This document shows positions 5,696 to 49,782 of a stretch of DNA of 64,000 bases, piece after piece; the first letter of the stretch is position 1, and every line of letters starts with the position of its first letter. The DNA lies in assembly GCA_965220815.1 (NCBI GenBank), contig OZ244846.1, positions 4,145,045-4,209,044 of the forward strand, read 5' to 3'. The DNA comes from Gammaproteobacteria bacterium (lineage in GTDB: Bacteria > Pseudomonadota > Gammaproteobacteria > Eutrophobiales > Eutrophobiaceae). Both the position numbers and the translations under genes were made by a program. The notes under the pieces were generated by a model. The model saw only the letters and a list, made by a program, of their open reading frames with translations, did no database searches and was not told where the DNA came from.

Positions 5696-7774
5696 TTTAA
5701 CCCAAGTTTAACATTTTCCGCCTGTCGGGACGGGGAATCAGGGTGATTTTGGCGGGTTTTCGGTCGTAACCCATTGATTTATGGTAAGGGGGGAGTAGTG
5801 TAGTGCCATAATATTTATTTTCTTGTTGACTCGCTCCGCCACCCCCGGTATCCTCTCCCCTATGTTCATCCGGCGCACCAAAACCCGCGCCACCACCACC
5901 GGCGAGGCCTACTACACCCACCGCCTGGTGCGTTCCGAACGCATCGGCGAGAAAGTGCGTCAGCGCACGCTGCTCAATCTCGGTCGCCACTTCGACGTCG
6001 CCCGCCAGGACTGGCCCGCACTGTGCCAGCGCATCGACGCGCTGCGCGCCGGTCAGATGGCCCTGTACGCCGATGGTCCGCCGGCGCTGGAGACCCATGC
6101 CCGGCACATCGCCGAACAGTTGCTCGCCCGCGACCGGGACGCACACCGGGAGACGCCGCCGGGCCGGGACCTGCAGGCGGTAGACGTGGGCTCGCTGGCA
6201 CTGGTGCGCCCGCGCTCGGTGGGGGTCGAGCACGTTGCGTTGTGGGCCATCGAGCAACTCGGCCTGCGGGCACGGCTGGAAGCACTCGGCATCGGCCCGT
6301 CCCTGCGCGCGGCGGCGCTCGGCTCGATTGTCGCCCGTCTGGCGCAACCCGGCTCGGAGGCCGCCGCGGCGCGCTGGCTGCGTGAGCGCAGCGCCCTGGG
6401 CGAGCTGCTGGGGGTGGACTTTGAGACTCAGCATCCCATACAGTTGTACCGCGCCTCCGATGCCCTCATGGCGCACCGGGACGCCATCGAGCAGCACCTG
6501 TTCGACCAGGCCATGGACCTGTTCACGCTGGCGCCCACCGTCACCCTCTATGACCTCAGCAACACCTACTTCGAGGGCGAGGCGGCCCAACAGCCCAAGG
6601 CGCGCCGCGGCCACGCCAAGGACAAGCGCACCGATTGCCCGCTGCTCACCCTGGGGCTGGTGCTCGATGCCAGCGGCTTCGTGCGCCGCTCGCAGGTGTT
6701 CGCCGGCAACGTGCGCGAACACCACACCCTGGCCGACATGCTTACCGCACTGGATACGCCGCCCGGCGCCCTGGTGGTCATGGACCGCGGCATCGCCACC
6801 GAGGACCGCCTGGCCTGGCTGCGCGAGCAGGGCTACCGCTACCTGGTGGTCAGCCGCGAACGCACCCGGCAGTTCGACCCCGAGGGCGCGGTGCGCATCG
6901 AGACCGCCTCAAAGCAGGGCGTGCAACTGCAGCGGGTGCTCGATGAGGACGCCGGCGAAGTGCGCCTGTACTGCTACTCCGAAGCCCGCGCCGCCAAGGA
7001 ACAAGGCATCGCCGAGCGCTTCGCCCAACGCCTCGAGACCGCCCTCACGCAACTTAACGAGGGACTGGCCAGACCGCGCACCCGCAAACGTATCGACCAC
7101 GTCCACCAGCGCATCGGACGTATCAAGGAAAACAGCCACGGCATCGCCCAGCACTACGATATCACCGTCGAGACCGACCAGACCGGCCAACGCGCCAGGG
7201 CGGTGCGCTTCACCCGCAACGCCCGGCCCGGCTCCCTGCTCACCCACCCGGGCGTGTACTGCCTGCGCAGCAACCGGACCGACTGGGACGAGGACACCCT
7301 GTGGCGCACCTACTTCATGCTCACCGACGTCGAGGCCGTGTTCCGCTCGTTAAAGTCCGAGCTGGGCCTGCGTCCCATCTACCACCACAAACCACTACGC
7401 GCCGAAGGGCACCTGTTCATCACCGTCATCGCCTACCAGTTGGTGCAGGTGATCCGGACCCGCCTGCGTAAGGCTGGCGAACACGCCAGTTGGACCACCC
7501 TGCGCCGCATCCTGGCAGGACAACAACGCATCACCGCCACCTTCCGCCGGGATGACGGGCGCACCCTGCACGTGCGCAAGGCCACCCTGGCCGAGCCGCC
7601 GCAGCAGGCAATCTACGATGCGCTGGGCATTGATTCATCACCGGGAGGTGTCCGCAAAAACCTCGTCTGAACCCTTCGACCTGGACCCCGGCGTCCACAT
7701 GTAGTGCCACTCGGCTGGCCAGATCTTCGTAACTGGCTGATATACAACAAGTTCGTAAAGACCTATGTTAAAGA
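5696..7774 (+). mobile_element. IS1634-family insertion sequence (IS4 superfamily)
   Basis: GC-rich body 5823-7680 between AT-rich flanks. Imperfect 18-bp inverted repeat TTAACCCAAGTTTAACAT (5696-5713) / ATGTTAAAGATGGGTTAA (7757-7774, 16/18 matching). Direct copies of GTAGTGCCA at 5799 and 7701. Exact ends are uncertain. Confidence 0.5.
5862..7670 (+). CDS. IS1634-family transposase
   Basis: N-terminus MFIRRTKTRATTTGEAYYTHRLVRSERIGEKVRQRTLLNLG is the hallmark of IS1634-type transposases. DDE region present downstream. Confidence 0.8.
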   Translation: MFIRRTKTRATTTGEAYYTHRLVRSERIGEKVRQRTLLNLGRHFDVARQDWPALCQRIDALRAGQMALYADGPPALETHARHIAEQLLARDRDAHRETPPGRDLQAVDVGSLALVRPRSVGVEHVALWAIEQLGLRARLEALGIGPSLRAAALGSIVARLAQPGSEAAAARWLRERSALGELLGVDFETQHPIQLYRASDALMAHRDAIEQHLFDQAMDLFTLAPTVTLYDLSNTYFEGEAAQQPKARRGHAKDKRTDCPLLTLGLVLDASGFVRRSQVFAGNVREHHTLADMLTALDTPPGALVVMDRGIATEDRLAWLREQGYRYLVVSRERTRQFDPEGAVRIETASKQGVQLQRVLDEDAGEVRLYCYSEARAAKEQGIAERFAQRLETALTQLNEGLARPRTRKRIDHVHQRIGRIKENSHGIAQHYDITVETDQTGQRARAVRFTRNARPGSLLTHPGVYCLRSNRTDWDEDTLWRTYFMLTDVEAVFRSLKSELGLRPIYHHKPLRAEGHLFITVIAYQLVQVIRTRLRKAGEHASWTTLRRILAGQQRITATFRRDDGRTLHVRKATLAEPPQQAIYDALGIDSSPGGVRKNLV

Positions 7775-7778
7775 TGGG

Positions 7779-9062
7779 TTAAACTTTGTTAAACAAAAAT
7801 TTCTTATTCACCAGGATGAAAGATAAAAACACGTAGATGGAAAAACCAATAACAATCGCGTCTACTGCAGGAACGGTTGTAAATACAATCATCTTATTAT
7901 CTGACAGGTAACCTGTTAATGAACCCAGAATCCAGGCAAGAAACGCTACGGGATTATACCGGGGGGCGCGTTGCAATGCTTCATCAGTATAACGCTGTTT
8001 GTGTAACCAAAAATAATCCGCCAGGTAAACACCGGCAACGGGCGGTATCATGAAAGCAAGAAATTTCAGGAAATAAAGAAAGTTATCCAGGATCGGCAGC
8101 ATGGCTATCAACGTACCTGCAAAACCGACGACGATAACCAGCTTCCATTTAGCCACTGTCTCCGCGATGGTGGCAAAGACCAGGGACGCGGAATAAAGGT
8201 TATAAGCGTTAGTGGTCCAGGTAGCCAACAGCAATAATGTAAGGCCAGGCACACCCAGACCGACAATAAGGATAACCTTTAGAAAGTCTGCTTCAGCGGT
8301 GGCGACGACCGGTATCGCGGCAAGTAATAAAACAACAGGCACTCCGAGCCCGAAGCTAAATGACGCCGCCTGAACAGCATCAGTAGGTGAACGAGCATAG
8401 CGGCAAACATCGGGAAACATGGTCGTAGCAACAATGAAACCACCAATTCCGGCAGAAATCCCTTCCGTGAGCCCCATCTTCGCCTCATGATCAACGTTCA
8501 ATCCAAAAGAAGTGGCTGCCACGTAAACCAGCCAGCCCAGCAAGCACACCATGATCGGTACCGCCAGCTTGGACAAACGGTCCAACCCTTTAAAGCCAAA
8601 AATGGCAACCGCAATCATTAATCCTGAAGCCATAACCAGGTAGAAACGATGGCTTAATGGCTCCCCTCCCATGTCGCGCACTATGACCTCGACGGCGCGC
8701 GCAAACATATCAACGGTGGCGCCATACCACCCCAGCACGGTAATGCCGATAAATGCGCTGACAATTCTGGCGCCCGTATGGCCGAATGAATACCGGATGA
8801 TAACCCAGGTTGTCAGCCGGGTGCGTGCAGCGAGCACCCCGGTAGCGCCGGCAATAACGGACAATGCGATACCTGCAATGAAAAAAGCCACAATAGCCTG
8901 CTTAAGTCCCAGGGCACTGGCCAGTTGCGCCCCCACCAGAAACACCGGCAGGGTAATCATCGCACCTACAAGAACAACTGTGATCTTTAACCCGCTGACG
9001 GTTATCGAATCCGGCACGCGGTGGCGAGAGTAATCTTCAGTCAGTTGATCGAAATTCCGCAT
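7779..9062 (-). CDS. NCS1 family nucleobase:cation symporter (cytosine/purine/hydantoin permease-like)
   Basis: 12-TM profile and an N-terminal region typical of CodB/NCS1 permeases. Confidence 0.75.
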   Translation of the reverse strand: MRNFDQLTEDYSRHRVPDSITVSGLKITVVLVGAMITLPVFLVGAQLASALGLKQAIVAFFIAGIALSVIAGATGVLAARTRLTTWVIIRYSFGHTGARIVSAFIGITVLGWYGATVDMFARAVEVIVRDMGGEPLSHRFYLVMASGLMIAVAIFGFKGLDRLSKLAVPIMVCLLGWLVYVAATSFGLNVDHEAKMGLTEGISAGIGGFIVATTMFPDVCRYARSPTDAVQAASFSFGLGVPVVLLLAAIPVVATAEADFLKVILIVGLGVPGLTLLLLATWTTNAYNLYSASLVFATIAETVAKWKLVIVVGFAGTLIAMLPILDNFLYFLKFLAFMIPPVAGVYLADYFWLHKQRYTDEALQRAPRYNPVAFLAWILGSLTGYLSDNKMIVFTTVPAVDAIVIGFSIYVFLSFILVNKKFLFNKV

Positions 9063-9073
9063 CTGTATCGTGC

Positions 9074-10813
9074 CTAGAGTTTCAGAACTACCTTGCCGGT
9101 TGCAGGTTTGGCGCTACAGAGCAAAACCTGATTCTCTTCAGGTTGATGAGTTAAACTGAAATCATAATGTACCTTTCCTTCTTCCAGCCCAACACTGCAA
9201 CTCTGGCATACGCCCATACGACATGCATTATCGGGAGACAAACCCGCGGATTCGGCAAGCTCCAGCAGTGTCATATCTCCTTCAGCCGTCCATTGAACGG
9301 TTTTCCCCGTATGTGAAAAAACGACGGTAGCACTATCGATTTGCCCGTGCTGATAGCTGCCGCTATTAGGCAGAAACGATTCCTGAAATACGCGATCAGG
9401 ATTAGCCCCGGCGCCGGTTAATTCAGAATACAATTTATCCTGAAACACCGGTGGCCCGCACATATAGATATCGATGTCCACCAACGGCATGTCGATGCGT
9501 TTGCCCCCATGGAGGATATGGCAACCTTCCATGAACTTCTGAATGTGCTCCAGGGACAGATAGCCTCCCAACTGGTAGTCTTTTCCCTTTTTATCCTCCG
9601 CGGCAGGCTGGTCATAAACATGCAGCATGGGAACATTATATTCCTCCGCTATCTGGTCCAGTTCAGCACGAAAAGCCTGTGCGGCCCGGTTCCGGCAGCA
9701 ATGAATAAAATATAGAGGCGGCGCCTTTTCCCCACGCGCCAGGTGGGACTTGAGCATGGAAAATAAAGGTGTGATCCCAATCCCGCCGGCAATCAGCAGT
9801 ATGGGTTTGAAACTACTGCGGTCCAGTACGAAACGACCCATGGGTGGGCAGATCGATAAACGTCCGCCTGCTTTGATGTGCTTGTGCATAAACCCGGAAC
9901 CCAGGCCTTGCGGTTCTTTTTTGATACTTAAACGATAGTGATCCGGTTCATCCTGGTAATCCGACAGACTCCAGACCCGGAGCAGTGGTGACTCAGTATC
10001 AACGGGGACCTGTACAGTGAGAAATTGACCTGCTCGAAACCCTGCCAACGGCTGATTATCCTGCGGCTTTAAGACGAAGGATTTTATCTCCTCTGTTTCG
10101 TCAATGACCTCGGCGACCTTGAATTCACGCCAACCTTGCCAACGGCCAAGCTGCGTGCGTTCCTGGTCCAGGACCTGGTAAAGTTTGTTACGCAAGAGCA
10201 GTGCGGCAGTTTCGCTGAGACCCGGGAGGGCAAGGACATGTCGTAACGTGGCTTCATCAATGTCCTTGCCAAAGATATATTGGGCAATTTCATTTATCGC
10301 AATACTGTCTGTAGCTTTGCCGATTATCTTCACTTCATCCCCGGCCTGGATCATCCCCGGCCTGTCCACATTGAAATACACCCCGCTTTTCCCGGAAACG
10401 GCGAATTCCCGGATAAAGCTGGCCGGCTGGCGCATACGCCAACACAATTTGAAACAGGGCACCCGCGGACCGGATACTTTCAGTTGCACTTGTTCACCGA
10501 TGGAAAGTACATCACCAACCTGAAACTGCGCCTCATCCAGTCCGGCAATGGACAGGTTTTCTGCGAAAAACCCCGGCGGCCAGCCTTCAAATTTTACATC
10601 CAGCCGATCCGCCCAGAATTGATAGTGTTCCGGTGCAATGGCATACACCGCATCCGTATGCACCGCTACTTCATTTCCTTCTATGCCGTGCTCGTTTATT
10701 CGTACCGGACCGGTCATCGGGGTTTTCAGGTAGGCAGTCTTTACTGATTGACCATGGATATCCAGTTCCTGTGTCTTACCAACACAGACATTTATCAGTT
10801 TCATCGTCGTCAT
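9074..10813 (-). CDS. MOSC domain / FNR-like FAD-NAD(P) reductase / plant-type 2Fe-2S ferredoxin fusion oxidoreductase
   Basis: N-terminal MOSC beta-barrel region. RVWSLS (RxYS-like FAD motif) and GGIGITP NAD-binding motif. C-terminal CxxxxCxxC ferredoxin cluster. Confidence 0.65.
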   Translation of the reverse strand: MTTMKLINVCVGKTQELDIHGQSVKTAYLKTPMTGPVRINEHGIEGNEVAVHTDAVYAIAPEHYQFWADRLDVKFEGWPPGFFAENLSIAGLDEAQFQVGDVLSIGEQVQLKVSGPRVPCFKLCWRMRQPASFIREFAVSGKSGVYFNVDRPGMIQAGDEVKIIGKATDSIAINEIAQYIFGKDIDEATLRHVLALPGLSETAALLLRNKLYQVLDQERTQLGRWQGWREFKVAEVIDETEEIKSFVLKPQDNQPLAGFRAGQFLTVQVPVDTESPLLRVWSLSDYQDEPDHYRLSIKKEPQGLGSGFMHKHIKAGGRLSICPPMGRFVLDRSSFKPILLIAGGIGITPLFSMLKSHLARGEKAPPLYFIHCCRNRAAQAFRAELDQIAEEYNVPMLHVYDQPAAEDKKGKDYQLGGYLSLEHIQKFMEGCHILHGGKRIDMPLVDIDIYMCGPPVFQDKLYSELTGAGANPDRVFQESFLPNSGSYQHGQIDSATVVFSHTGKTVQWTAEGDMTLLELAESAGLSPDNACRMGVCQSCSVGLEEGKVHYDFSLTHQPEENQVLLCSAKPATGKVVLKL

Positions 10814-10953: not shown

Positions 10954-13149
10954 TTATTCGAAAGTATAACGGACGCTGACCCCCCAGGTCAGGGGCGGGA
11001 TATAGTTTGCTGCAAGTGTGCTCTGGCCGGCTATCGCCTGCGGCAAACTCAACATGAAGGGAGTGGAATCATTCAAATAATTGTATGCGCGTTCATCCGT
11101 CAGGTTCTTGCCCCACAAGGTAAACGCCCAGTTGGATTTCAATTCCCAGGTGATACTGGCATTGACGATACTGTCCAGCCCGTTAACAATTCCCGGTTCA
11201 TTGGCCGGATCCTGGAAGTACTCGTCCTTGTGCTGTACATCCAACCGCATCCTCAACGCGCCCTTGTCGCCAAGCTGCTGCCTGTATGCCATCCCTGTCG
11301 AAAAGGCATGGGGAGGTGAAACCATTTCGTTACCCGGAAACAGTTCGTCCGAGGTATATTCTCCATCAAAGTAATTATAGTTGATCCACGCGGTCAACCC
11401 CTCTGTAATGGCTGCATTGAGTTCAACATCCACCCCTTCAGCTTCCGCTTTACCGGCGTTGGTCTGCAAAAAAGTTGTGCCTACAAGTTGCGATACCTGC
11501 AAGTCCGTATAATCCACCATGTAGCCTGTTATGTTGGCGGTCACGCGATTGTCGAACCAGCTTGAACGCACGCCGATTTCATAGTTTTTTGCGCTTTCAG
11601 GATTAAGGGGTACGGTATGGGCATCGGCAGTCGGGAGGCCGAATTGAATAAAACCGCCGCTCTTGAAGCCCTCTGAATACGTCGCATAGACCATGATGTC
11701 TTCGGTAAGGTCGAAGTCAAGGGTCACGCGTGAGGTATACTTGGACCAGGACTCGGACACCGGCAGACTGAAGGGCGCGCCAGTGGTAAAAATAAAGCTG
11801 GTGCCTGCATGCGAAACCACGCCGTCCTTTTTGTCGTGAGTATAGCGTCCGCCTACCGTCAGGCGCAGGTTATCCAGTATGGAAAATGTTCCCTGGAAAA
11901 AACCGGAAATACTGTCGGTTTCATTGTTCAGGGTGGTATCCAGGAAATCAGGCTCCGCCGCCCCCGGAAAAAGATCGCCAATAATCGTTCCCTCGGCAAA
12001 ATCAGTTACGAAGTTACGATCACGGGTGTGATCAATGTAAAGATAGTACATGCCGACAACCCAGTTCAAGCGTCCTTGAATGGCATCATCACCGCTGATC
12101 CTGAGTTCCTGGGTAAACTGTTCCAGGTCGAATTCCTGGGTTTCCACAAGCAGGTCAGGCAGCGGTGAACCGAAAACATCGGTTGCGGGTAATTTTCCTT
12201 CGTCCTCGTAGTAAGCCGATATGGACTTGATTTGAGCAAACCCCATATCCCAGTCTACAACCATTGAGGCGCCCCAGGAGGTCCGGTCAACCCCGCCGTC
12301 ATTGGGTTGGTTTGTGGTATCGGGATCATCCTCCGGCATAAATCCTCCAAACTCGGCAGAAGTGGGAGCCGGCCCGACGTAATCCCGGTGCTGGCCGAAA
12401 CCCGTATCACGCATCAAATCGGCCTGTAACAGAACCTCAAATTCATCGTTGGGAACGAATCGCAACTGCGCCTTACCGCTTTGTTTGTCTACGCTGTCAA
12501 CGTGATTTCCCGTCGCCTGGTTAAACGTATAGCCATCGCGGGTCTTGCTGGAAAACGCAATGGAACCGTAGACGCCGCTGTCTTCCATTAACGGACCGCT
12601 GACAACTCCTTTTATGTCAATCAGATCAAAGCGGCCCGAACCTGCCTCGAGAACAATCCGGGTCTTTTCGGTAGGTTTTTTAGTGACTACGTTTATCAGT
12701 CCGCCCACCACATTTCGGCCGAACAAGGTGCCCTGCGGTCCACGCAGGACTTCAATGCGTTCCACATCGAACAAGGCCAGGTCCCAATCCGTTACCCGCC
12801 CCTTGTAAACATCATCGACAAACATGGCTACCGGCTGATCAAGTCCCGGCCCATCTTCACCGGACTGCGCCCCGCGCAAGGTCGGCAATGCCTGTACGCG
12901 CGTAAATGGCGCAAGATGCAAATTGGGAATATGGCCGACCAGGTCGGTCGTACCATCGATCCTCGCTTCGTTGATGTAGGTCTCGTTGAATGCGGTCACG
13001 GCCACAGGTACATCCTGCAACGACTGTTCACGCTTTTCTGCAGTCACTATTATCTCTTCAATTTGTATTTGTCCATAGACGGCCTGCAGATTCATTACTG
13101 CAAACAAAATCAATATAAGTTTACTGATAATATTATGCTTAACTTTCAT
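10954..13149 (-). CDS. TonB-dependent outer-membrane receptor
   Basis: Signal peptide MKVKHNIISKLILILFAVMNLQA. TonB box / plug (EEIIVTAEKREQSLQDVPVAVTAF). C-terminal beta-barrel. Start moved to ATG 13149, preceded by GGAGGG. Confidence 0.8.
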   Translation of the reverse strand: MKVKHNIISKLILILFAVMNLQAVYGQIQIEEIIVTAEKREQSLQDVPVAVTAFNETYINEARIDGTTDLVGHIPNLHLAPFTRVQALPTLRGAQSGEDGPGLDQPVAMFVDDVYKGRVTDWDLALFDVERIEVLRGPQGTLFGRNVVGGLINVVTKKPTEKTRIVLEAGSGRFDLIDIKGVVSGPLMEDSGVYGSIAFSSKTRDGYTFNQATGNHVDSVDKQSGKAQLRFVPNDEFEVLLQADLMRDTGFGQHRDYVGPAPTSAEFGGFMPEDDPDTTNQPNDGGVDRTSWGASMVVDWDMGFAQIKSISAYYEDEGKLPATDVFGSPLPDLLVETQEFDLEQFTQELRISGDDAIQGRLNWVVGMYYLYIDHTRDRNFVTDFAEGTIIGDLFPGAAEPDFLDTTLNNETDSISGFFQGTFSILDNLRLTVGGRYTHDKKDGVVSHAGTSFIFTTGAPFSLPVSESWSKYTSRVTLDFDLTEDIMVYATYSEGFKSGGFIQFGLPTADAHTVPLNPESAKNYEIGVRSSWFDNRVTANITGYMVDYTDLQVSQLVGTTFLQTNAGKAEAEGVDVELNAAITEGLTAWINYNYFDGEYTSDELFPGNEMVSPPHAFSTGMAYRQQLGDKGALRMRLDVQHKDEYFQDPANEPGIVNGLDSIVNASITWELKSNWAFTLWGKNLTDERAYNYLNDSTPFMLSLPQAIAGQSTLAANYIPPLTWGVSVRYTFE

Positions 13150-13212
13150 TTTCTTTCCCTCCTCGTTGCCTGCTGACATTTTTAACTGATAATTCAACCT
13201 TTCTGTTCTCAA

Positions 13213-14343
13213 TCATATATCGTCATGAATATGTTCAATTCTCTGGAATGCTTCCTCAATTCCGAAACACTCCGGCCCGAATACGTCTAACGCCTTTTGA
13301 GATCGCATAATGGGCGCAGCACTGGTGCCTATAACCTTTACTCGCTGCCCAAATTTTAGTGCTTCAACGGTAATGGGTTGTGCCGTCTCCCGATCAACTA
13401 TGGTGATCAGATCAGGGACAATAGCCAGCGTTTGACCCTTGCGTTTTGCCAGGAGATTTTCATTTTGAAATTGGATATGCACTCGATCATTCGCATCATC
13501 CATATCGCTTATTTCACAATGCCCCATAGCAAAGCCTTTGGTGGTTTCCCGCCTGATATCCGTGATTTTTCCATCGAACAAAACCTTACTATGTTTGTAG
13601 TAATCGGTACTGCGCAGGTAAGCCAGCAAAGATTCAATTGGGTTGCCGTTATCTTGACCTGAACGGATTGCCCTGCCGATCTTCAGGGCCAGAGTCAAGG
13701 TTCCTCTGACGCTATAGTCTTTCACCTGCTTACCTGTCATTGGATAACCGCTGAATAAAACGCTTAAGCCCATTTGAATAGCCGCCACCCGAATGATGTC
13801 TTCAGCGCGTTTGGGATCAGAGGTTTCCACCACTACTGTTTCCAGATGTTCGTTGACAATTACAGCCGGCGTCGCTGAAACACCGTACACATTAAAGGTC
13901 ACCATTTGGATTTCCGGAAAGGCGCGGCCCATACCATCACAATCCACCAGGGGTAACCCCAGACGCGCTGCGGCAACTATGGGCAACATGGAATTGATAC
14001 CGCCGATCTCTATTGGAGTAATCGCATCAGCTTTTCTACCAATGATGTCACCAAGCCGATTGATAGAGAGATCGATATCCTCACCGGCAGTCCCCTTTTC
14101 CAACATAACGGTGGGCGCACCCACCATGGCTGCGGTAAAAACAGCCGCATCATCGCCCAGTTCGTCGGCATCAATGATTTCCGGCATGCCGAACTCCCGT
14201 ATGGCATGCTCGGCCATCAATCTGCCGATATAAGGATCGCCACCACCACCAGTGCCCAGAAAGGCTGCGCCCTGTGCCAGGTCATATATATCTTCTACGC
14301 CAAGAGTTAATCGTTCGACATTTTCTGCTTGTACATTCAGCAT
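13213..14343 (-). CDS. DUF917 family protein (hydantoinase-associated)
   Basis: GTGGGGDPYIG motif. Typical pairing with and 7-nt overlap onto the adjacent hydantoinase gene. Confidence 0.7.
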   Translation of the reverse strand: MLNVQAENVERLTLGVEDIYDLAQGAAFLGTGGGGDPYIGRLMAEHAIREFGMPEIIDADELGDDAAVFTAAMVGAPTVMLEKGTAGEDIDLSINRLGDIIGRKADAITPIEIGGINSMLPIVAAARLGLPLVDCDGMGRAFPEIQMVTFNVYGVSATPAVIVNEHLETVVVETSDPKRAEDIIRVAAIQMGLSVLFSGYPMTGKQVKDYSVRGTLTLALKIGRAIRSGQDNGNPIESLLAYLRSTDYYKHSKVLFDGKITDIRRETTKGFAMGHCEISDMDDANDRVHIQFQNENLLAKRKGQTLAIVPDLITIVDRETAQPITVEALKFGQRVKVIGTSAAPIMRSQKALDVFGPECFGIEEAFQRIEHIHDDI

Positions 14344-15950
14344 ACGTCCAACTCCCCGGCTGTTTTAACGCGCAAACGTACTGCGTTGCCTGGAATATAA
14401 GATAAGGGCACTTCTTCAAAGTCGATCATTTCTACGCTATCTTCCAGAGCACCGGCCTCAACCGCGGCCATTACCGCCTGTTGCTTTGCATCGATAATGG
14501 CGGCATCACGCCCCACGTTTTCATAGGAATAAACTTTGTCCACCTCACCACCCACCTGAGCGATGGAAGCACCTATGGCATTGGCGACGCCGGCATGTTC
14601 AGGAATAATCACTTCTGAGGTACCGGCGATATCGCGATTAATCAGGATGGCGCCACCACCCACTAAAATCAGCGGTATCGGCCTGGCGCTGGTCTTTATC
14701 CGGTCCACACCGTCTTCCAGTATGGAATGAATCTTCGTTACGGCCATGTCAATCAAGGCCATCGGCAAATTATTCACGTAATCCCGCCTGCCAATATCCG
14801 CATAGCCGGCCGCGACGGCGATGTCGGTAGTTGTGAGCGTATTGCCACCGAATACCCGCGCCACCTCGGTCAGGCGATAACCGACTGAGCGCGGTCCGAC
14901 CCTCATGGGTTCGGCTTCTGTTACCAGGCTGCCGCCGCCAAGGCCGATGGCCAGAATGTCAGGCATGCGAAAATTCGTCCGCACACCACCGATGTCAACA
15001 GTCACGGAGGATTCTCGTGGAAAGCCATTGACCAGCATGCCAATATCGGTAGTAGTGCCGCCAATATCTGCCACAAGGGCATCTTCTACACTGGATAAAT
15101 AGGCAGCACCGCGCATACTGTTGGTCGGGCCGGAAGCAAAGGTAAGCACCGGGTATCTCTCAGCAAACCCGGCGCTCATCAATGTACCGTCATTCTGGCT
15201 GATATAGAACGATGCCTGGATTTGTAATTCTGCCAATGCTTTTCTAAAAGAAGAGATTACCTTTGTAGAGAGATCCGTCAGACTGGCATTCATGATGGCG
15301 GCATTTTCCCGCTCCAATAAACTAATCCGGCCAATACGTGAAGACAAAGTGATCGAAACCGCCGGTATTTCCTCACGCACTATCTCCGCTGCCCGCTCTT
15401 CCATATCGGCATTCACCGGAGAAAACACGCCACAGATGGCGACGCTGCGTATACCTTTTCGTCTCAGTTCTCCCGCAGCCCGGGCAACAGCCTGTTCATC
15501 CAGTGGAGATATTTCACGACCATCGAATTCGTAACCACCCTTGACCAGGTGCAGGTTATCGCCAATGACATTCGCAATATCCGGTGGCCAATCTATCATT
15601 GGGGGCAAACCACGGGTGGCGGGTAAGGCAAGGCGTATCACACCAACAGGCAACAAGCTGCGCCGCTCGACAAAGGCATTGGTAAACTGGGTTGTGCCGA
15701 TCATGACGGAGTCTATTTCTCCGGCCGGAACGCCGGTACCATCCATGACATGACTGATTGCACTGACAATTCCATCGCTGATGTTGGCACTGGTAGGGGC
15801 TTTATAACTCGCTTTTACTACGCGGGCATCCATTAACACCGCATCGGTATTGGTCCCCCCTACGTCAACGCCTATTCTCACTGTCGATTGCTCCGCCAGG
15901 AATAATTGGATCAATTCCAGTAATACTAGGGAAAACCCATTTTTAATCAA
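14337..15950 (-). CDS. hydantoinase / oxoprolinase family protein (HyuA-like, ATP-dependent)
   Basis: N-terminal RIGVDVGGTNTDAVL ASKHA-fold phosphate-1 motif. Length and architecture of the Hydantoinase_A family. Confidence 0.75.
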   Translation of the reverse strand: MIKNGFSLVLLELIQLFLAEQSTVRIGVDVGGTNTDAVLMDARVVKASYKAPTSANISDGIVSAISHVMDGTGVPAGEIDSVMIGTTQFTNAFVERRSLLPVGVIRLALPATRGLPPMIDWPPDIANVIGDNLHLVKGGYEFDGREISPLDEQAVARAAGELRRKGIRSVAICGVFSPVNADMEERAAEIVREEIPAVSITLSSRIGRISLLERENAAIMNASLTDLSTKVISSFRKALAELQIQASFYISQNDGTLMSAGFAERYPVLTFASGPTNSMRGAAYLSSVEDALVADIGGTTTDIGMLVNGFPRESSVTVDIGGVRTNFRMPDILAIGLGGGSLVTEAEPMRVGPRSVGYRLTEVARVFGGNTLTTTDIAVAAGYADIGRRDYVNNLPMALIDMAVTKIHSILEDGVDRIKTSARPIPLILVGGGAILINRDIAGTSEVIIPEHAGVANAIGASIAQVGGEVDKVYSYENVGRDAAIIDAKQQAVMAAVEAGALEDSVEMIDFEEVPLSYIPGNAVRLRVKTAGELDVC

Positions 15951-16004
15951 TGAGTTAATCGTATAGTATCGATGCTTTTTTGCTATGTAACTTAATTATA
16001 CCAT

Positions 16005-17765
16005 TCCGGCCTCAGGGCGCGCGCAGGGGGGCGGTCTTCACAGGGTGAGACCGTAACGGAAGCTGGCGTTGCGTCGCTGCCCATGCCGGCCTGTCAGGTG
16101 GCCCCGCGCTGGCCTGTGGTCGGGAGGGGCGTTGCGGCGGCGGCGCCGGGGGGTGTAACGGGGTGGTGTGACCCCGGTCCCGGTCAGGCGGCGTCCGGCA
16201 GGGCGGTTGCCCCGTCCGGGGCGTGGTAGCCGTATTTTTCCAGCATTTTGAACCAGCGCGGTGCGTTGCGTTTCACCATCAGGGCCTCGTAGTCGGTGTG
16301 CGGGTCGTGGTAGGGGGTGTCGGTGGCCAGCATGCGGTAGAGGATGCGCAGCAGTTTGTGGGCGGTGGCGACGGTGGCGCGTTTATAGCCGCGGCGCACG
16401 GTGAGGGCTTTGTGGTAGCCTTTGAACTGGCAGTGGTGGGTGCGGGCGGCGCCGTGTGCGCACTCGATGAGGAGGGTGCGCAGGAAGGGATTGCCCTTGC
16501 GGGTGCGGCCGTGGCGGCGTTTGCCGGCGCTCTCGTTGTTGCCGGGGCACAGGCCGGCCCAGGCGGCGCAGTGGCGGGCGGAGGGGAAGACGCGGACGTC
16601 GGGGCCCAGCTCGATGAGGATGGCGCGGGCGGCGCTGTGGTCGATGCCTGGGAGGGTCATCAACAGGTCGAGTTGTTGCTGGCAGGGCGTGAGTTGCTGT
16701 TCGATGAAGGCATCGTAGTCGGCGATACGGGTCTCGGCCTGCTCGAACGCGGCCAGTTGGTCCTGCAGGACAAAGCGGGCATGTGGACGCAGGGGCGCGC
16801 TGAGGGCATCGTCCAGTGCCGTGAGTCGGGGCCGGACGTGGCCGGAGAGGGACGCCAGGATGTTGTCCGGGGCGCGTCCGGCCGCCAGTCCCTCGAGGAT
16901 GCGGCGTCCGTTGACGCCGAACAGGTCTGAGAGCAGGCCGCCGACCCGGAGGCCGGCGCCGTCGAGGACCTGGTGGATGCGGGTGCGCAGGGTGGCGCGC
17001 AGGCGCACGACCTTGTGGCGCTGGCGTGACACCTTGCGCAGGGCGCGGAAGTCGGCGGGGGGCACGAAGCTGGGGGCGCACAGGCCGAACTGGCAGATAC
17101 GCGCCAGCCAGACGCTGTCGGCGATGTCGGTCTTGCGTCCCTTGAGTTGCTTGACGTGCTGGGCGTGCACCAGTATCGGTTCGATGCCGGCGCTCTCCAG
17201 GGCCTCGAAGACGACCTCCCAGTAGACGCCGGTGGCCTCCATCACGGCGGCGCTGACCTGGTGGTCCAGCAGCCAATCGACCAACTCGCCAAGGCCGGCG
17301 GGCAGGGCGCTGAAGCTGCGGGTGTGGGTCTCGGCCTCGGCATTGGGCCGGGCCAGGCGCACGGTGGCGGTGATTTGCATCTTGTGCACGTCCAGGCCGG
17401 CGGCGCGGGCGTGGATGACGTTTAAGGTATCAGTGTGTACACTATCAGACATAACGCTTCCTCCAAATGGGTGGTGTGATACAGGGTGCGGGAACGGGAG
17501 CAACGGGCAGCTGGCTCGTCTCCCGGATGGGAGACGGCGCATTTTGCTGTGCGTCCTCGGCAGTGCCGGGTACAAAGCGGGGCACGATGCCGTTGCTCGG
17601 GAACAGTTTAGAGTCGGGCTCATAAGGCGCCGCAAAAAAAAAGCGTCCTCAGTCTCGCTCCCGCCCCGCCAGTGTGCACCAGGACGAGGCGTTAGCCAAC
17701 GTCGGGGCCGCGGGTTGCCCGTGGCCCTGGCGTTTCTCAGTTACATGCAATCGGGGCGTGCAGAG
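16005..17765 (-). mobile_element. IS110-family insertion sequence (copy 1)
   Basis: Abrupt shift to very GC-rich sequence between AT-rich flanks. Contains the IS110 transposase. IS110 elements lack terminal inverted repeats, so ends are approximate. Confidence 0.45.
16184..17452 (-). CDS. IS110-family (DEDD) transposase
   Basis: MSDSVHTDTLNVIHARAAGLDVHKMQI… N-terminal DEDD domain. C-terminal Transposase_20-type region (GIDHSAARAILIELGPD). ATG located at 17452. Confidence 0.85.
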   Translation of the reverse strand: MSDSVHTDTLNVIHARAAGLDVHKMQITATVRLARPNAEAETHTRSFSALPAGLGELVDWLLDHQVSAAVMEATGVYWEVVFEALESAGIEPILVHAQHVKQLKGRKTDIADSVWLARICQFGLCAPSFVPPADFRALRKVSRQRHKVVRLRATLRTRIHQVLDGAGLRVGGLLSDLFGVNGRRILEGLAAGRAPDNILASLSGHVRPRLTALDDALSAPLRPHARFVLQDQLAAFEQAETRIADYDAFIEQQLTPCQQQLDLLMTLPGIDHSAARAILIELGPDVRVFPSARHCAAWAGLCPGNNESAGKRRHGRTRKGNPFLRTLLIECAHGAARTHHCQFKGYHKALTVRRGYKRATVATAHKLLRILYRMLATDTPYHDPHTDYEALMVKRNAPRWFKMLEKYGYHAPDGATALPDAA

Positions 17766-20184
17766 AACTGATCATGAGAGTTTAGTAGGGCAAAAAATTG
17801 CATATGGGTAGGTTAATTGCACAAATGGGTAGGGTAGACTAAACTATTAAACGGAACAGTTATGATTATCCAGGACAACTATCAGATGCCAAACGATAGC
17901 GGTCGCTTGCTACTGAACAGGATGCGACCACTTCGCCGCAACGTTGCATCAATAAAACGGCAGAGTTTACTGGAAAGACTCGAACAGCAGAAAGACACTC
18001 ACCTCAGCATTATCCATGCGCCGGCAGGTTATGGAAAAACCGCCTTGCTTACACAATACTATGAGCAACTGCAGACACGGAACCAACATTGTGGTTGGCT
18101 TACCCTGGACAGCAGCGACGATGATCCGGTGCAATTCCTGGCATATCTTATTGCCTCACTGGACTCAACGACACTTATCCCGAAAGATATATTGGATGCA
18201 GCATTCAACGGATTTCACGGACTTGAGGAAAACGAAACCTTTAATATTATCGTCAATTGCCTCTCAGGATTCCAGACACCAGTTTACATTTTACTTGATG
18301 ACTACCACCTTCTTCAGGCAAGCCCCAGCCAGCGACGCGTACAGAAGTTAATAGAATTAACACTCGAAAATACACACTTCATTATATCCAGCAGGGAAGT
18401 TCCTACCTCATTAAAAGGGCGCTTACAGGTATCCGGTTCTTATTTTGAATTGACGGCCAGCGATCTTGCATTGACAAAGTCAGAAACCATCGAGCTGCTG
18501 GGATTATCAGGACAAATAAATATAACTGATGAACTTGTCAGTCTGTTACACGAAAAAACAGAGGGCTGGGCCGCAGCGATTGAGTTCGCCAAAAACTGGT
18601 TAACCAAGAATACCGAAATCGATGTTAACAGCTTTATCAATCAATCAACGGATTTCTCGACATTTGTCATGACTGAGATTTTCAATCAGCTTCCAGTTGA
18701 TTTACAAGGTGTCATGGTAGATACATCAATAGTCAGCCAATTTGATGGAGATATCATCAATGTTGTCTGTGCACGAAACGATGGCTGGCAAGTATTGGAA
18801 AAACTTTTTCAGCACGACCTGATCATTCCCCTCGATGAGGCAAGTACATCGTATCGATACCATCATTTGCTGACAGTATTTCTTCTAAACCGGTTTCGTA
18901 AGAAGAATGATAAAGACAAAAGTGAATTGCACAAACTCGCATCAGAATGGTATCTGGCGACTGATAATTCTGCTGAGTCCATAAGACATGCCATTGCCTG
19001 TAGTGATCCGGAATTTCTTGCATCGGTGACCGAGCGGTCCGGAGGCTGGCGTTTCGTTCTGGATGGAAGAATTTCGACCTTAACTTCCATACTTGAAGTC
19101 CTGCCACTGGAAACATTTCAGAACTATCCCCGAACCTACTTAGGCTACATTATGCTGATTGCGAAGCACGGAAATGTTCACGAAGCGTCAGTGGAGTTTA
19201 ATAACTTCCGCGACAATACACATGGTTTTACCATATTGAATGAATCCCCCTTACCTTCTTTTTTTGCGGTAGAAGCCAATGTAGTAGAATTTTTCCTTGG
19301 TGGAATAGGAGATAGACCGCAAACTCCACAATATATCGCCAGAATGGAATCTGCCCTTAAGGGGATAGATAAACAGGATCATCTTCTACAAGCCAATATG
19401 TTGAACTACCTCAGTTTTGGTTACTTCGATTACGGTAGTTTTGAGAAAGCCTTTAATGCGGGGGAAGATGCAATTTTTCACTATAAGGAATTACGTTCTA
19501 TATATGGTGAAAACTTTCTCTATTTCCACCTGGGGAAAATATGTCTTGCCCAGGGTCGGCTGCGTGATGCAGAACAGATTTACAATGAAGGATACCGACT
19601 GGCCGTTAATAATTTCGGGACTGACAGTGACATGGCTGCCATTGCCGCCGCGCATCTGGCAGAAGTAGCATATGAAAAAAGTGAGTTTGAACAGGCACAA
19701 ACCTACCTGGCTATTGCCTTCCCCAGAATAGAACAATCAGAAGCCTGGTTCGATGTGTATCTTTCTGCCTATTTGACTGCCGCGAATATTGCCGGTATCC
19801 AGGAAGGTGCCGGTGCTGCAATGAAGGTGTTGATTGACGCATTCCGCACCGGCAAACGCCGCAAGATTCACAGGCTACGCATATTCAGTATTTGTCAGCA
19901 GGCTCGTATTTTTATCCGGGAGGGCCGCTTACAAAGGGCAGGTTGGATCATTAATCGTTTACAGTTTGAATCATTCATTAATCCAACTACCGAGAATGAG
20001 TTCATCAGTCATCGAGTCATTGAAGAAATTGGTTCAACTACAGCCTATTACTTTACACAAAATGAACGCCCTCTCGATGCAATCAAGGTAATTGATTCCT
20101 TGCTGAAAACAGCGAAACGTAATAACGGTCGCCGGGGTTTGATTTCACTGTATATCCTGCTAAGTCTGGCTTATTTTAAGCTAG

Positions 20185-21802
20185 CAGTCTGTCGGACTTA
20201 GGCGCCAAGATTGTTTTTATAGACCATGATTCATGCCCTGTTATCACAGCAAGGCATACTTGCCAGTGAACTCACTCTATATGTGTCCTACCTTGACGTA
20301 GTCAGACCCCAATCAATGCCCAAACCGGCAGGCACAGGCCGGCCACGTTCGCACTCAGGCCAATTGCAGCTTGTGTAACCGTTTACAGTTGTACGCCAGG
20401 GCCAACAACTGCCACTCACCCGTTACCTTGGCATGACCGCGCAGCAGAAACTGCCGAAACCCCATAACCTGCTTCATGATGCCAAACACCGGCTCCACCG
20501 TTTGTTGACGCAGTCGGTAGCTGGCCCGGTTGTCCGCCTCGGACAACTTCTCCTGCATCGCCACCAGCCAGGGCGCCTTCGGCGGCTTGGTCTCGGTCAC
20601 CTTCTCCGGGTCCGGCAACGGACGAAAGTCATGCTGCCGACGCCGGTCTTCCGTGCCCACCGCCACCAGGACGTCTATCTTCCGGCCCGTCAGTGTCTCG
20701 ACTTCGGTCTCCGTCGCATAGCCGTTGTCCGCCAACACCTGCGTGGGTGTCCCTACCTTCGCCGGCACCGTGTCAACGTCAGCCACCAGTTCGTTGCGGT
20801 CGCTGGCACACCGGCTCACCCGCGCGCCCAATACCAACTGGCTGCCGTCCACATCCACCACCGCCTGCGCATTGTACGCCTGCTGGTACTCACTGCGCTT
20901 GTTCTTGCGCATCAACTCGCTGTCCGCATCCGTCAGGTTCACCTGGGACTCCGCCGCCGGCGCCTCGGCCGGCGGCTTGATACGGCGTCCCTTCGCCCGG
21001 CCTTCACGCTGCTCGCGCGCCGCCACCTTGCGCGCATACTCAGCCTGCTCCGCCGCGGCCTGCGCCTTGGCCTGGCGCGCCAGACGGGCGCACGCTGCAT
21101 CCAACTGCGAGGCCAGCTGCTCCCGGCGCGCCAGGTCTCTCGGCAACTGCTGCGGGTCTGTCTCATCCTGGCTGTCCGCACGCTCGGCCTGGCCCAGCAA
21201 GTCCCGCACCTCACCCCGCAACTGCTCGCGCAACTGCACCGCCCGGTCATAGCGGATGCTGCGCCGCTTGCTGGCGTTCGCCTTCATCTTCGTCCCGTCC
21301 ACGCTCACCCGGCCTACCTTCAACAACTTCAACTCCTTCGCCAGCAGCAATACCTCCACGAAACCCGCCTCCACCGCCGCCCGGTTCTCGCGCCGAAACT
21401 TGCATAGCGTGTCATGGTCCGGGTGCGTGTTCGCCGTCACGTAACGCACCCCGATATCACGGTACGTCGCACGCTCAATCCGGCGCGAAGAAAAAATCCC
21501 GTTCGCATAACAGTACACCAGCAACGCCAGCATCATGCGCGGATGATACTGCGCCGAGCCCGTGCCCCGGACGTTCACCACAAACTCACTGAGCGGCACC
21601 CGCTCCACCGCGGCAACAACAAAATGCGCCAGGTCGTCCTCAGGCAGCCACTCGCGCAAATCCGGCGGTAATAAATACGGTTGTGTGCGGTCACTTTGTA
21701 CAAAGTTTTGCATTGGAATGTAGCCTCTATCGCTCGTGCACTGTTATCATCAAACCATGTCGTCTATTATACCCCTATGCAAACCCTAAGTCCGACAGAC
21801 TG
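20185..21802 (-). mobile_element. IS1182-family (IS5 superfamily) insertion sequence with a 4-bp CTAG target duplication
   Basis: Perfect 18-bp terminal inverted repeats CAGTCTGTCGGACTTAGG (20185-20202) / CCTAAGTCCGACAGACTG (21785-21802). Flanked by direct CTAG at 20181-20184 and 21803-21806. Confidence 0.75.
20355..21713 (-). CDS. IS1182-family transposase (DUF772 N-terminus + DDE_Tnp_1_6 C-terminus)
   Basis: YHPRMMLALLVYCYANGIFSSRRIE N-terminal motif. C-terminal LADNGY…QTVEPVFGIMKQ…GEWQLLALAYNCKRL. Confidence 0.8.
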   Translation of the reverse strand: MQNFVQSDRTQPYLLPPDLREWLPEDDLAHFVVAAVERVPLSEFVVNVRGTGSAQYHPRMMLALLVYCYANGIFSSRRIERATYRDIGVRYVTANTHPDHDTLCKFRRENRAAVEAGFVEVLLLAKELKLLKVGRVSVDGTKMKANASKRRSIRYDRAVQLREQLRGEVRDLLGQAERADSQDETDPQQLPRDLARREQLASQLDAACARLARQAKAQAAAEQAEYARKVAAREQREGRAKGRRIKPPAEAPAAESQVNLTDADSELMRKNKRSEYQQAYNAQAVVDVDGSQLVLGARVSRCASDRNELVADVDTVPAKVGTPTQVLADNGYATETEVETLTGRKIDVLVAVGTEDRRRQHDFRPLPDPEKVTETKPPKAPWLVAMQEKLSEADNRASYRLRQQTVEPVFGIMKQVMGFRQFLLRGHAKVTGEWQLLALAYNCKRLHKLQLA

Positions 21803-22302
21803 CTAGGAAAACAAAAGCCGGCGCTGACCAGGTTGAACGACGCAGTATCGCATGCCATATTTGAGGGATTCAAAAGACCATTCCTGGAATACGGTAAAGA
21901 CCAGCGGGTAATACTGGAGTTGGCGCTTTCCAACAACCAGTTGTTTCCTATCAACCGATTGAAACGATCTTTCCTGGCTGAACTTATAAATATGATCGAC
22001 CTGGAAAACCGAAATCGTGAACGTCATTCACCAGGCGTGCTAACTTTCAGAGAACGGGAGATCGTGAAATATATTTATAATGGGTATTCGAATAAGGAAA
22101 TAGCTCGAAGTCGTAATTGTTCAGAGAATACGGTGAAATTTCACTTAAAAAACATTTTTTTGAAGTTTGGTGTCAAAAATAGAAAAGCTCTGGCGCGAAT
22201 AGCCTGGGAGCACATTGATATGTGACCCCAGACCATGAGTTACCGTGACTTCGAGGAAATAAGTCAGGACCGGATAATGCTTAGCAATAATACGCCGCCA
22301 AC

Positions 22303-22671
22303 TCAACCCATATGGAAAAAATCTAGCTTGTTTCCGTCGAGGTCTCGAAAATAAGCGGCATAAAAACCCGGCATGCGCTCTCCAGGCGCACCTTCATCTG
22401 TGCCTCCCAGTTCCAGGGCCTTCTCGTACAATCTATCCACCGCTTCTTTGCTGTCCACTGCCAGGGCGACCATCGCGCCATTACCTGGTGTTGCAGGATT
22501 GCCGTCAAACGGCTCGATTACACCAAATAAAGGCGAGCCCTCGCCGGAACTCCAGGTAACCAGACGTTTAAGTTCAAGCGCTCTTGCTGCACCAATTTCT
22601 CCAAGTAATGCATCATAGTAGGCGGCTGCGCGCTCCAGGTCGTTAGTACCAATTGTTACATAACCAATCAT
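22303..22671 (-). CDS. VOC (glyoxalase / bleomycin-resistance / dioxygenase) family protein
   Basis: MIGYVTIGTNDLERAAAYY… typical VOC-fold start; 122 aa. Confidence 0.65.
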   Translation of the reverse strand: MIGYVTIGTNDLERAAAYYDALLGEIGAARALELKRLVTWSSGEGSPLFGVIEPFDGNPATPGNGAMVALAVDSKEAVDRLYEKALELGGTDEGAPGERMPGFYAAYFRDLDGNKLDFFHMG

Positions 22672-28081: not shown

Positions 28082-28181
28082 GCGGTTGACCTCATCCTGG
28101 TAAATAGTTGCATCTACAACTAATATTAGTTGCACAAACAACTTTTGTCAACCAGGATTGTGCCAAAATTGTGCGAAGCCT

Positions 28182-28261
28182 GGGGTCAGAGTAAAATCCT
28201 GTAGAATATTGCCAATGGCGAGGTCAGAGATGATTTTACTCTGGCCCCAAACATTGACCCC
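28182..28261. repeat. REP-like palindromic element, long variant
   Basis: GGGGTCAGAGTAAAAT (28182-28197) … ATTTTACTCTGGCCCC (28233-28248), then a terminal TGACCCC. About 35-bp conserved spacer. Lies in the divergent hppD / marR promoter region. Confidence 0.6.
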
Positions 28262-28274
28262 ATAGTTCTTTATC

Positions 28275-30911: not shown

Positions 30912-30927
30912 CGATCGGAAAAATCCA

Positions 30928-31010
30928 GGGGTCAGAGTAAAATCCTGGAAAACATCGCCAGTGGCAGTGCCAGTGGTGATTTTACTCTGACCCCAACATA
31001 TTCTGACCCC
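30928..31010. repeat. REP-like palindromic element, long variant
   Basis: GGGGTCAGAGTAAAAT (30928-30943) … ATTTTACTCTGACCCC (30979-30994) … TGACCCC (31004-31010). Sits between convergent gene ends. Confidence 0.6.
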
Positions 31011-31017
31011 TTAATTC

Positions 31018-31637
31018 TTAATCGATCAGGATAATCCCCTTGTTCTTCATGTAGTCGGTGATTATCCCCACTTCTTCTTCGACAGTCATCCGGTCGGTGC
31101 GGAGGTGGATTTCCGGACTTTTCGGTTCCTCGTAGGGATCGTCAATCCCGGTAAAGTTCCTGATCTCCCCTGCTCGGGCTTTCTTGTACAAGCCTTTGGG
31201 ATCGCGCTGCTCTGCGGTCTCCAGGGAGCAATCCACGTGTATCTCGATAAATTCGAACCCCGCCTCCCGGTGTAATTCCCGTACCCGGTCGCGGTCCGCC
31301 CGGTAAGGACTGATAAAGGCGGACAGGACCAGCAGGCCCGCATCCACAAAAAGTTTGGAGATCTCACCGATGCGGCGGATGTTCTCCGTCCGGTCCTCCG
31401 CGGAGAAACCTAAATTCCTGTTTATGCCCATGCGGATATTGTCGCCGTCCAGCCGGTAGCTCAGCTTTCCATATTCGTAAAGAACCGCCTCAAGCGCGAC
31501 TGCAATGGTGCTCTTGCCGCTGCCCGAGAGGCCGGTAAACCAGAGGGTCGCCCCTTTCTGACCCAGAAACCGGTTCCGGTCCGCGCGGGTGATGTCTCCT
31601 TCATGCCAGTGAACATTGGTCGCTTTTTGTTTTGTCA
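31018..31637 (-). CDS. cysC: adenylyl-sulfate (APS) kinase
   Basis: P-loop GLSGSGKST and the full APS-kinase core. GTG at 31637 gives the canonical ~206 aa. Upstream in-frame ATGs at 31704 and 31758 would extend into the divergent thiolase gene. Confidence 0.75.
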
Positions 31638-33336: not shown

Positions 33337-33481
33337 GGGGTCAGAGTAAAAATACACAGAGACAATGGGGACGGACTTCAAGTCCGTCCCCGGCATGCCG
33401 AGATGTGTGGGGTCAGAGTAAAATTTCTGGCGAAATTCTTACTCTGACCCCGGAATTCGCCGGAAATTTTACTCTGACCCC
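33337..33481. repeat. tandem cluster of REP-like elements plus an embedded GC hairpin
   Basis: Arms GGGGTCAGAGTAAAA at 33337 and 33409. Right arms (T)TTACTCTGACCCC ending 33451 and 33481. Perfect hairpin GGGGACGGACT-tcaa-AGTCCGTCCCC at 33367-33391. Confidence 0.6.
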
Positions 33482-39940: not shown

Positions 39941-39992
39941 AATGATGTCAAATTCGATGATGGCGTCCCCTGTGTAAGATACCTGGATACCT

Positions 39993-40051
39993 GGGGTCAG
40001 AGTAAAAATTCTCCGAATTTCTTACTCTGACCCCAATGATCCTCTGACCCC
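39993..40051. repeat. REP-like palindromic element, short variant
   Basis: GGGGTCAGAGTAAAAATTCTCCGAATTTCTTACTCTGACCCC, then CTCTGACCCC. Confidence 0.6.
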
Positions 40052-48168: not shown

Positions 48169-48207
48169 GGGGTCAGAGTAAAACTCTGTGAGTTTTACTC
48201 TGACCCC
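48169..48207. repeat. REP-like element, minimal perfect-hairpin variant
   Basis: GGGGTCAGAGTAAAACT-ctgtg-AGTTTTACTCTGACCCC, a 17-bp perfect stem 12 nt after the oxidase stop. Confidence 0.65.
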
Positions 48208-48231
48208 TACATTACTGGAGGCTCACTGAAA

Positions 48232-48710: not shown

Positions 48711-48745
48711 AAAAGGGGGACAGATTTAAAATCTGTCCCCCTTTT
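48711..48745. terminator. bidirectional rho-independent terminator
   Basis: AAAA-GGGGGACAGAT-ttaaa-ATCTGTCCCCC-TTTT between convergent genes. The T-run overlaps the nucleoside hydrolase stop. Confidence 0.6.
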
Positions 48746-49766: not shown

Positions 49767-49782
49767 GGGAACAATAAAAAAG

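Follow-up and report, generated by a model that had tools for sequence, protein, structure and literature searches.

Interruption of a MalT-like regulator gene by an IS1182-family insertion sequence in a Gammaproteobacteria genome

We describe here a gene for a MalT-like regulator of the LuxR type that has very probably been knocked out recently, through the ordinary event of an insertion by an IS1182-family insertion sequence (IS). The gene lies in a 64,000-nucleotide (nt) stretch of a Gammaproteobacteria bacterium genome (GenBank assembly GCA_965220815.1, contig OZ244846.1, positions 4,145,045 to 4,209,044 of the forward strand; hereafter the window, with its first letter as position 1). A sequence-only reading of this stretch, made without database searches, had proposed that the element split a regulator gene whose 913-amino-acid (aa) open reading frame (ORF) can be exactly restored. 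This proposal was followed up by in silico excision, searches of protein families, homologues, and structures, and comparison with related metagenome contigs.

Results

The excision agrees with the proposed split. Removal of 20185-21806 (equivalently 20181-21802) leaves 2,742 nt, or 913 codons and a stop, with no internal stop codon and with the junction given in the sequence-only reading, ...AYFKL/GKQKPALTRLN.... The frame is broken if the IS is excised alone or together with both flanking CTAG copies. As it stands, the N-terminal part is read as a 779-aa ORF spanning 17862-20201 which, as described before, ends in IS sequence: the first 17 bases of the left terminal repeat supply its last five codons (AVCRT), all foreign, and its TAG stop (20199-20201). 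The helix-turn-helix (HTH) part lies downstream in another frame, also as described, because the inserted 1,622 bp leave a remainder of 2 on division by 3. The gene had been called cleanly split, which holds for the reconstruction and fails for the domains. The break at residue 774/775 is inside the Pfam TPR_MalT match (residues 491-812), 77 residues N-terminal of the HTH, so the IS did not separate whole domains. From the pattern LAYFKL/GKQKPAL, the break is predicted to lie in the turn of the last tetratricopeptide repeat (TPR)-like repeat.

Uninterrupted alleles, which the earlier reading had proposed to seek in relatives, were found. A protein search with the restored regulator returned P0001 (913 aa, nominal identity 100%) and P0002 (915 aa, 90% identity), and the remaining matches in the best 120 homologues are single proteins of 856 to 944 aa; N- and C-terminal fragments encoded as separate genes, which would have counted against the split, were not seen among them. 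Two metagenome contigs, L001 and L002, carry the gene for P0001. By exact comparison, the window is identical to P0001 at 909 of 913 residues, and its nominal 100% is therefore a rounding; beside the four replacements there are 14 to 15 synonymous differences. At the nucleotide level, the window is 99.2% identical to the two contigs in the N-terminal part of the regulator and 97% in the C-terminal part, and the IS is missing there. The empty site in L002 reads ...TTTTAAGCTAGGAAAAC... with a single CTAG, which shows that the 4-bp duplication claimed earlier is real; L001 carries the synonymous variant CTCG at the insertion site. The junction peptide LAYFKLGKQKPAL is unbroken and conserved among relatives down to 55% identity. 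Among the matches listed, relatives of at least 55% identity occur only in uncultured Gammaproteobacteria, and the next matches are at about 30%.

The interrupted allele is well preserved. At three of the four residues that differ from P0001, the window allele has the outgroup state, and the ratio of nonsynonymous to synonymous divergence (dN/dS) of the regulator against L002 is about 0.1; there is thus no sign of decay since the insertion. The regulator was evidently under purifying selection until the insertion, which on the same comparisons is recent.

The assignment of the element to the IS1182 type and the description of its ends both stand. The transposase has Pfam matches to DUF772 (PF05598), DDE_Tnp_1 (PF01609), and DDE_Tnp_1_6 (PF13751) and scores 324.4 bits with the NCBIfam IS1182 model NF033551 (cut-off 270). 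The length of 1,618 bp lies within the family range of about 1.3 to 2 kb. The 18-bp terminal repeats are perfect, with the same 18-mer CAGTCTGTCGGACTTAGG inverted at the two ends and complementarity stopping at base 19. A scan of the window for this 18-mer with up to three mismatches found only these two matches, against 0.02 expected by chance. Among annotated transposases, the nearest are IS1182-family members encoded on plasmids of Komagataeibacter and Acetobacter, the best of them 56% identical in an end-to-end alignment (residues 1-450). This relative, on a Komagataeibacter plasmid, is bounded by the inverted repeat CAGCCTGTCGGGTTGGGG with CTAG at both ends and thus has the same architecture. 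The closest metagenome copy among the matches listed, on contig L019, has a transposase of 86% identity. With these two (56% for the annotated plasmid copy and 86% for L019) as the closest elements compared, the element would be a new IS under the usual naming rules. That the transposase ORF is intact, the ends perfect, and the target gene undecayed suggests that the element is capable of transposition. No other copy of this element, or of the IS110- and IS1634-family elements described below, was found within the window.

The end sequence and target of the element are shared widely. A metagenome scan for the exact 18-mer matched at least 120 contigs, on which 125 ends had sufficient flanking sequence, and CTAG flanks 88 of them; among the matches listed, most non-CTAG ends have the one-base variants CTGG, TTAG, CTAA, CCAG, or TTAA. 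The exact 18-mer also bounds listed elements whose transposases are 42 to 86% identical, so the end sequence and the CTAG preference appear to be traits of a deep clade. In the window, CTAG occurs 13 times (one being the duplicate), against 244 expected from base composition and 35 from a Markov model; the tetranucleotide is strongly avoided in this genome. The restored regulator gene contains exactly one CTAG, the insertion site. A strict CTAG preference amid CTAG avoidance restricts the landing sites for this IS clade. The sequence-only reading had called CTAG the classic IS5-group target; the duplication is confirmed, and the likeness is an analogy between related families, not IS5 membership, since the transposase scores far below the cut-offs of the NCBIfam IS5 models (best 77 bits against 140). 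Several of the remaining CTAG sites in the window are stop codons of minus-strand ORFs (9074, 36990, and 49842).

Pairs of the same 18-bp repeat were also seen only 80 to 210 bp apart on six metagenome contigs (Table 1), mostly flanked by CTAG, and resemble miniature inverted-repeat transposable elements (MITEs), which are miniature and non-autonomous. Their internal sequences recur in many further metagenome contigs.

The restored protein has the architecture of the MalT-like class of STAND/LuxR regulators (signal transduction ATPases with numerous domains), also called large ATP-binding LuxR (LAL) regulators: by its matches it comprises an NTPase, a TPR-like sensor, and a C-terminal HTH. Pfam gives TPR_MalT (E = 1.9e-24) and GerE/LuxR HTH at residues 852-907 (E = 5.3e-19), with weaker P-loop NTPase matches at the N terminus; WHD_MalT is listed for the intact allele. 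Residues 21-425 match the N-terminal module of Escherichia coli MalT in the PDB (8bob, E = 7.7e-31), and the Walker A (APAGYGKT) and Walker B (ILLDDYH) motifs are kept in all relatives aligned. The NCBIfam MalT equivalog model aligns to residues 25-427 with 256 bits, below its cut-off of 537, and no maltose/maltodextrin (mal) genes were found among the neighboring genes examined, which are hydantoinase-like, DUF917, TonB-dependent receptor, reductase, hydrolase, and VOC genes. The earlier label of a MalT-like LuxR regulator therefore holds, and MalT proper was rejected.

The candidate regulon lies beside the regulator. The divergent pairing of the regulator with an operon beginning with a hydantoinase-like gene (Table 1) is conserved in all relatives, including those at 55 to 61% identity, by gene maps in L003 to L006 and, in L007 to L011, by DNA synteny with hydantoinase-like coding sequence to the left of the intergenic alignment. 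From this conserved position, the operon is likely to be the regulon; the earlier suggestion that a MalT-type regulator should sit next to its targets thus led to a candidate, and not to maltose genes. The substrate of the operon is not indicated by NCBIfam, in which thiohydantoin desulfurases score about 110 bits against cut-offs of 440 to 450 and caprolactamase alpha is far under threshold; the literature on DUF917, S-methyl thiohydantoin, and thiohydantoin desulfurase gave nothing usable on it.

Upstream of the regulator, two direct repeats of TGGGTAGG are arranged as TGGGTAGG-N13-TGGGTAGG, with a degenerate third copy, AGTAGG, at 17784-17789. This double box is kept in all nine intergenic sequences aligned, including those of relatives at 55 to 61% aa identity, and the one departure is a single mismatch (GAGTAGG) in the first box of L009. 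The window holds the pair only here, with 0 expected; of 11 regulator loci, 10 have one exact match to the pattern, and 121 unrelated loci have none. We infer that the repeats are a candidate operator of the regulator.

An IS110-family element has inserted into the 181-bp intergenic region between regulator and operon. Situated 78 bp upstream of the regulator ATG, it separates the TGGGTAGG boxes from the start of the operon; in L001 and L002 its flanks abut, GATGCTTTTTT being followed directly by CAGTAGGAT. Its DEDD-type transposase ORF (16184-17635, minus strand, with a probable start near 17449) scores 267 bits with NCBIfam NF033542 (cut-off 140) and has Pfam matches PF01548 and PF02371. The ends were defined by an 82%-identical copy elsewhere in L011 (1123-2910), with which the window copy shares the ends GCTATGTAACTT... 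and ...CATGA(G/A)(A/G)GTTT. The flanks of the L011 copy are palindromic (GGCCACCTCT and AGAGGTGGCC), and the 3' noncoding end of that copy matches its own flank over 9 nt (GGCCACCTC), a short match. For the window copy, the guide-target comparison gave only T-run matches, and its site is less similar (a T-run and then AGTAGG). An Rfam scan of the whole window found no family at threshold and so did not reveal a guide (bridge/seek) RNA of the IS110-family element. Compared with relatives L003 to L011, this insertion and that of the IS1634-family element occur only in the window.

The regulator allele and its flanks have had different histories. The synonymous divergence (dS) of the regulator from relatives is three to seven times below that of the flanking genes: dS is 0.17-0.28 against 0.7-1.8 when L003 and L007 are compared (0.25-0.28 against 0.76-1.8 for L007 alone), and against L002 it is 0.02-0.03, with 0.19 for the hydantoinase-like gene. 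L008 has a different pattern, with 0.22-0.37 upstream, 0.41-0.48 in the regulator, and 0.9-1.2 downstream. The low dS relative to the flanks points to exchange of the allele by recombination, and by these comparisons the locus is a recombination mosaic. Across 4000-28000, comparison with L003, L007, and L008 also showed abrupt dS shifts at gene borders. The gene had been described as markedly AT-rich and probably acquired. The first part holds, with 43.8% G+C in the N-terminal part and 41.5% in the C-terminal part, against 61.5% in the IS and about 55% in the remaining window. Recent acquisition, proposed from G+C alone, was rejected, since both the low G+C (41 to 47%, with flanks of 49 to 56% in relatives) and the position are common to all relatives examined.

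Table 1. Features of the regulator locus, its insertions, and related repeat pairs
Feature	Position (window unless a contig is given)	Strand	Content or basis
Regulator N-terminal part	17862..20184	+	Codons 1-774 and base 1 of codon 775; Walker A, Walker B, MalT-type NTPase/arm region, most of the TPR_MalT sensor domain; ORF list, Pfam, NCBIfam, PDB
Walker A motif APAGYGKT	18018-18041		Within the regulator N-terminal part
Left target copy CTAG	20181..20184	.	Single CTAG in the L002 empty site
IS1182-family insertion sequence, 1,618 bp, 61.5% G+C	20185..21802	-	Inverted repeats, duplication, transposase family; missing in L001-L010 exactly here
Left terminal inverted repeat CAGTCTGTCGGACTTAGG	20185..20202	+	
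Transposase gene, 452 aa, apparently intact	20355..21713	-	Antisense to the regulator; Pfam, NCBIfam
Right terminal inverted repeat	21785..21802	-	Perfect 18-bp match to the left repeat
Right target copy CTAG	21803..21806	.	Single CTAG in the L002 empty site
Regulator C-terminal part	21807..22225	+	Last 2 bases of codon 775 to stop; end of the last TPR-like repeat, linker, GerE/LuxR HTH (residues 852-907, ~22037-22204)
Double box, two direct repeats of TGGGTAGG 21 bp apart	17805..17833	+	Candidate operator, role inferred
IS110-family element, ~1.8 kb	15982..17783	-	Missing in L001-L010, flanks abut
Hydantoinase/oxoprolinase A-like gene, 514 aa	14337..15881	-	First gene of the divergent operon; Pfam, NCBIfam
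DUF917/S-Me-THD-like gene	13213-14343		Divergent operon, after the hydantoinase-like gene
TonB-dependent receptor gene	10954-13212		Divergent operon
MOSC-FAD-2Fe2S reductase gene	9074-10813		Divergent operon
IS1634-family element	~5700-7789		Transposase ORF 5823-7670 (+), ~70% G+C; missing in relatives
MITE-like pair	L017 7717-7913		
MITE-like pair	L057 4497-4704		
MITE-like pair	L086 7771-7930		
MITE-like pair	L101 8339-8499		
MITE-like pair	L106 2257-2336		
MITE-like pair	L111 2982-3141		

Discussion

An IS1182-family element transposed into the gene's only CTAG and duplicated it, with the gene otherwise undamaged. The native promoter would then yield only a 779-aa NTPase-sensor fragment without its DNA-binding domain; with the break 77 residues before the HTH, this product should be unable to bind DNA. 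The 139-aa HTH fragment would be stripped of promoter and start codon, and the two losses together would make the regulator null. The divergent operon would lose induction through the regulator, and the IS110-family insertion would independently uncouple it from the TGGGTAGG boxes. With that element between boxes and operon, restoration by a single excision would be unlikely.

Nothing contradicts the insertion itself; its functional consequences are predicted. The regulon and the operator are assigned from conserved position only. A promoter and terminator scan of 15800-22400 was at chance level (6 promoter sites against 4.5 expected, with counts no higher than in shuffled sequences) and gave no support for an outward promoter at the IS end or for specific intergenic promoters. 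The window is one assembly. Depending on the order of the two insertions, the gene may also have been useless before the IS1182-family element arrived.

The strongest rival, although we consider it unlikely, is that read-through, or transcription from the outer end of the IS110-family element next to the TGGGTAGG boxes, now drives the operon, which would make the regulator dispensable and its disruption neutral or favored. The IS110 transposase ORF and the operon (from 15881 down) are both on the minus strand, no minus-strand terminator-like site was found between them, and two different IS elements have inserted at one regulatory node within 2.4 kb. The scans neither support nor oppose this explanation. 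Strong outward promoters are not known in integrated IS110-family elements, and the window contains a third IS, so two close insertions could reflect a high IS load. A broader version, about as unlikely, takes both insertions as a selected rewiring. Here TGGGTAGG-N13-TGGGTAGG would be the operator of an uncharacterized clade of MalT-like activators that control how uncultured Gammaproteobacteria take up and break down a hydantoin- or thiohydantoin-like compound. The IS110-family element would have uncoupled the operon or replaced the operator, loss of the activator would have been neutral or favored, and the low regulator dS would record spread by recombination.

It is very unlikely that the fragments are active, the 779-aa product as a ligand sink or by interference with a paralogue, or the HTH part, expressed from the IS, as a ligand-independent activator. 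For E. coli MalT, ligand-independent activation by the C-terminal domain on its own has been reported. An ORF at 21683-22225 with a GTG start in the IS is in frame with the HTH part, and both fragments are undamaged. On the other side, the consensus scan gave no outward promoter at the IS end, and the one weak candidate seen by eye, with a 15-bp spacer, is downstream of the GTG. The GTG ORF also adds 40 foreign residues, the last TPR-like repeat is destroyed by the break, and no paralogue of the regulator is present within the window.

An assembly artefact (a mis-join at a repeat) or a minority variant in the sampled population is more doubtful again. The source is apparently uncultured, the relatives found are all metagenome assembled, and other samples carry uninterrupted alleles. 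A mis-join would not, however, yield perfect inverted repeats and an exact 4-bp duplication of the CTAG of the empty site, and the window holds no second copy of this IS to cause a collapse. Finally, the idea that a sensor protein and a small LuxR protein are naturally separate genes has nothing for it beyond the two ORFs as they stand and is refuted by the single-protein lengths of all of the best 120 homologues, by the empty site and contiguous conserved junction in relatives, and by the origin of the last five residues of the N-terminal ORF in the IS repeat.

Annotation should treat the two ORFs as a single pseudogene that a mobile element has split, rather than as separate genes for a sensor and a small LuxR protein. 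An uncharacterized MalT-like regulator is thereby available both as a natural, predicted null allele and in intact form, and the locus pairs a conserved candidate operator with a conserved candidate regulon. The event is a textbook IS knockout that leaves current understanding unchanged and may help to mark recent IS activity in the lineage.

Other features of the window

The transposase of the IS1634-family element scores 298 bits (cut-off 100), and the element has the imperfect inverted repeats AACCCAAGTTTAACAT and AACCCATCTTTAACAT. An NCS1-type permease gene (7779-9062, minus strand) has the element at its 3' end, and the stop codon of that gene lies on the IS boundary. About 0.8 kb of the permease gene (8013-8838) is missing in L003 to L010, where only a 105-aa ORF is found; by this comparison the permease has apparently decayed in relatives and is longer in the window.

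A gene for a 122-aa glyoxalase/VOC-family protein (22303-22671, minus strand) lies between the regulator and an alpha/beta-hydrolase gene in the window, L001, and L002. The hydrolase gene directly follows the regulator in L003 to L005 and, by DNA synteny, in L007 to L010. At 1163-2377 (minus strand) is a low-G+C (~42%) gene for an AAA_21/AbiEii-like ATPase, which may be a defense or toxin-antitoxin component. A palindromic repeat of about 40 bp at 48169-48208 and 49781-49820, matching in both orientations, flanks an ORF at 48744-49766. Further short repeats pair 28176-28274 with 30922-31023 and link 33408-33457, 39992-40034, and 59834-59877.

Comparison with known systems

The element resembles the IS1182-family elements of Komagataeibacter and Acetobacter and ISPsy36. 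All have a single DDE transposase of about 450 aa with DUF772 and DDE_Tnp_1_6, a length of about 1.6 kb, and terminal inverted repeats starting CAG(C/T)CTGTCGG. The duplicated target is a palindromic tetranucleotide throughout, CTAG in the window and in the Komagataeibacter element and GGCC in ISPsy36, an element of Pseudomonas syringae pv. actinidiae that likewise sits inside a regulator gene, hrpR, and knocks it out (PMC8027508).

The likeness to IS5 is more distant. IS5 makes a 4-bp duplication and prefers CTAG-like (YTAR) targets, and the window element shares with it a DDE_Tnp_1 transposase, the length of the duplication, and the target preference. Unlike that of IS5, its transposase falls under the IS5 cut-offs and above the IS1182 cut-off.

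The regulator, at 913 aa, is similar in size to E. coli MalT (901 aa) and has in common with it and the LAL class the Walker A/B NTPase, the MalT-type winged helix, the TPR_MalT region, and the C-terminal GerE/LuxR HTH. Members of this class act as activators, depend on ligand and ATP, and bind to asymmetric boxes repeated beside their regulon. Unlike those of MalT, the neighbors are a hydantoinase-like/DUF917 operon with TonB-dependent receptors instead of maltose genes, and the box sequence TGGGTAGG differs from the MalT box. The arrangement of the candidate operator, with directly repeated G-rich boxes, is like that of MalT-dependent promoters.

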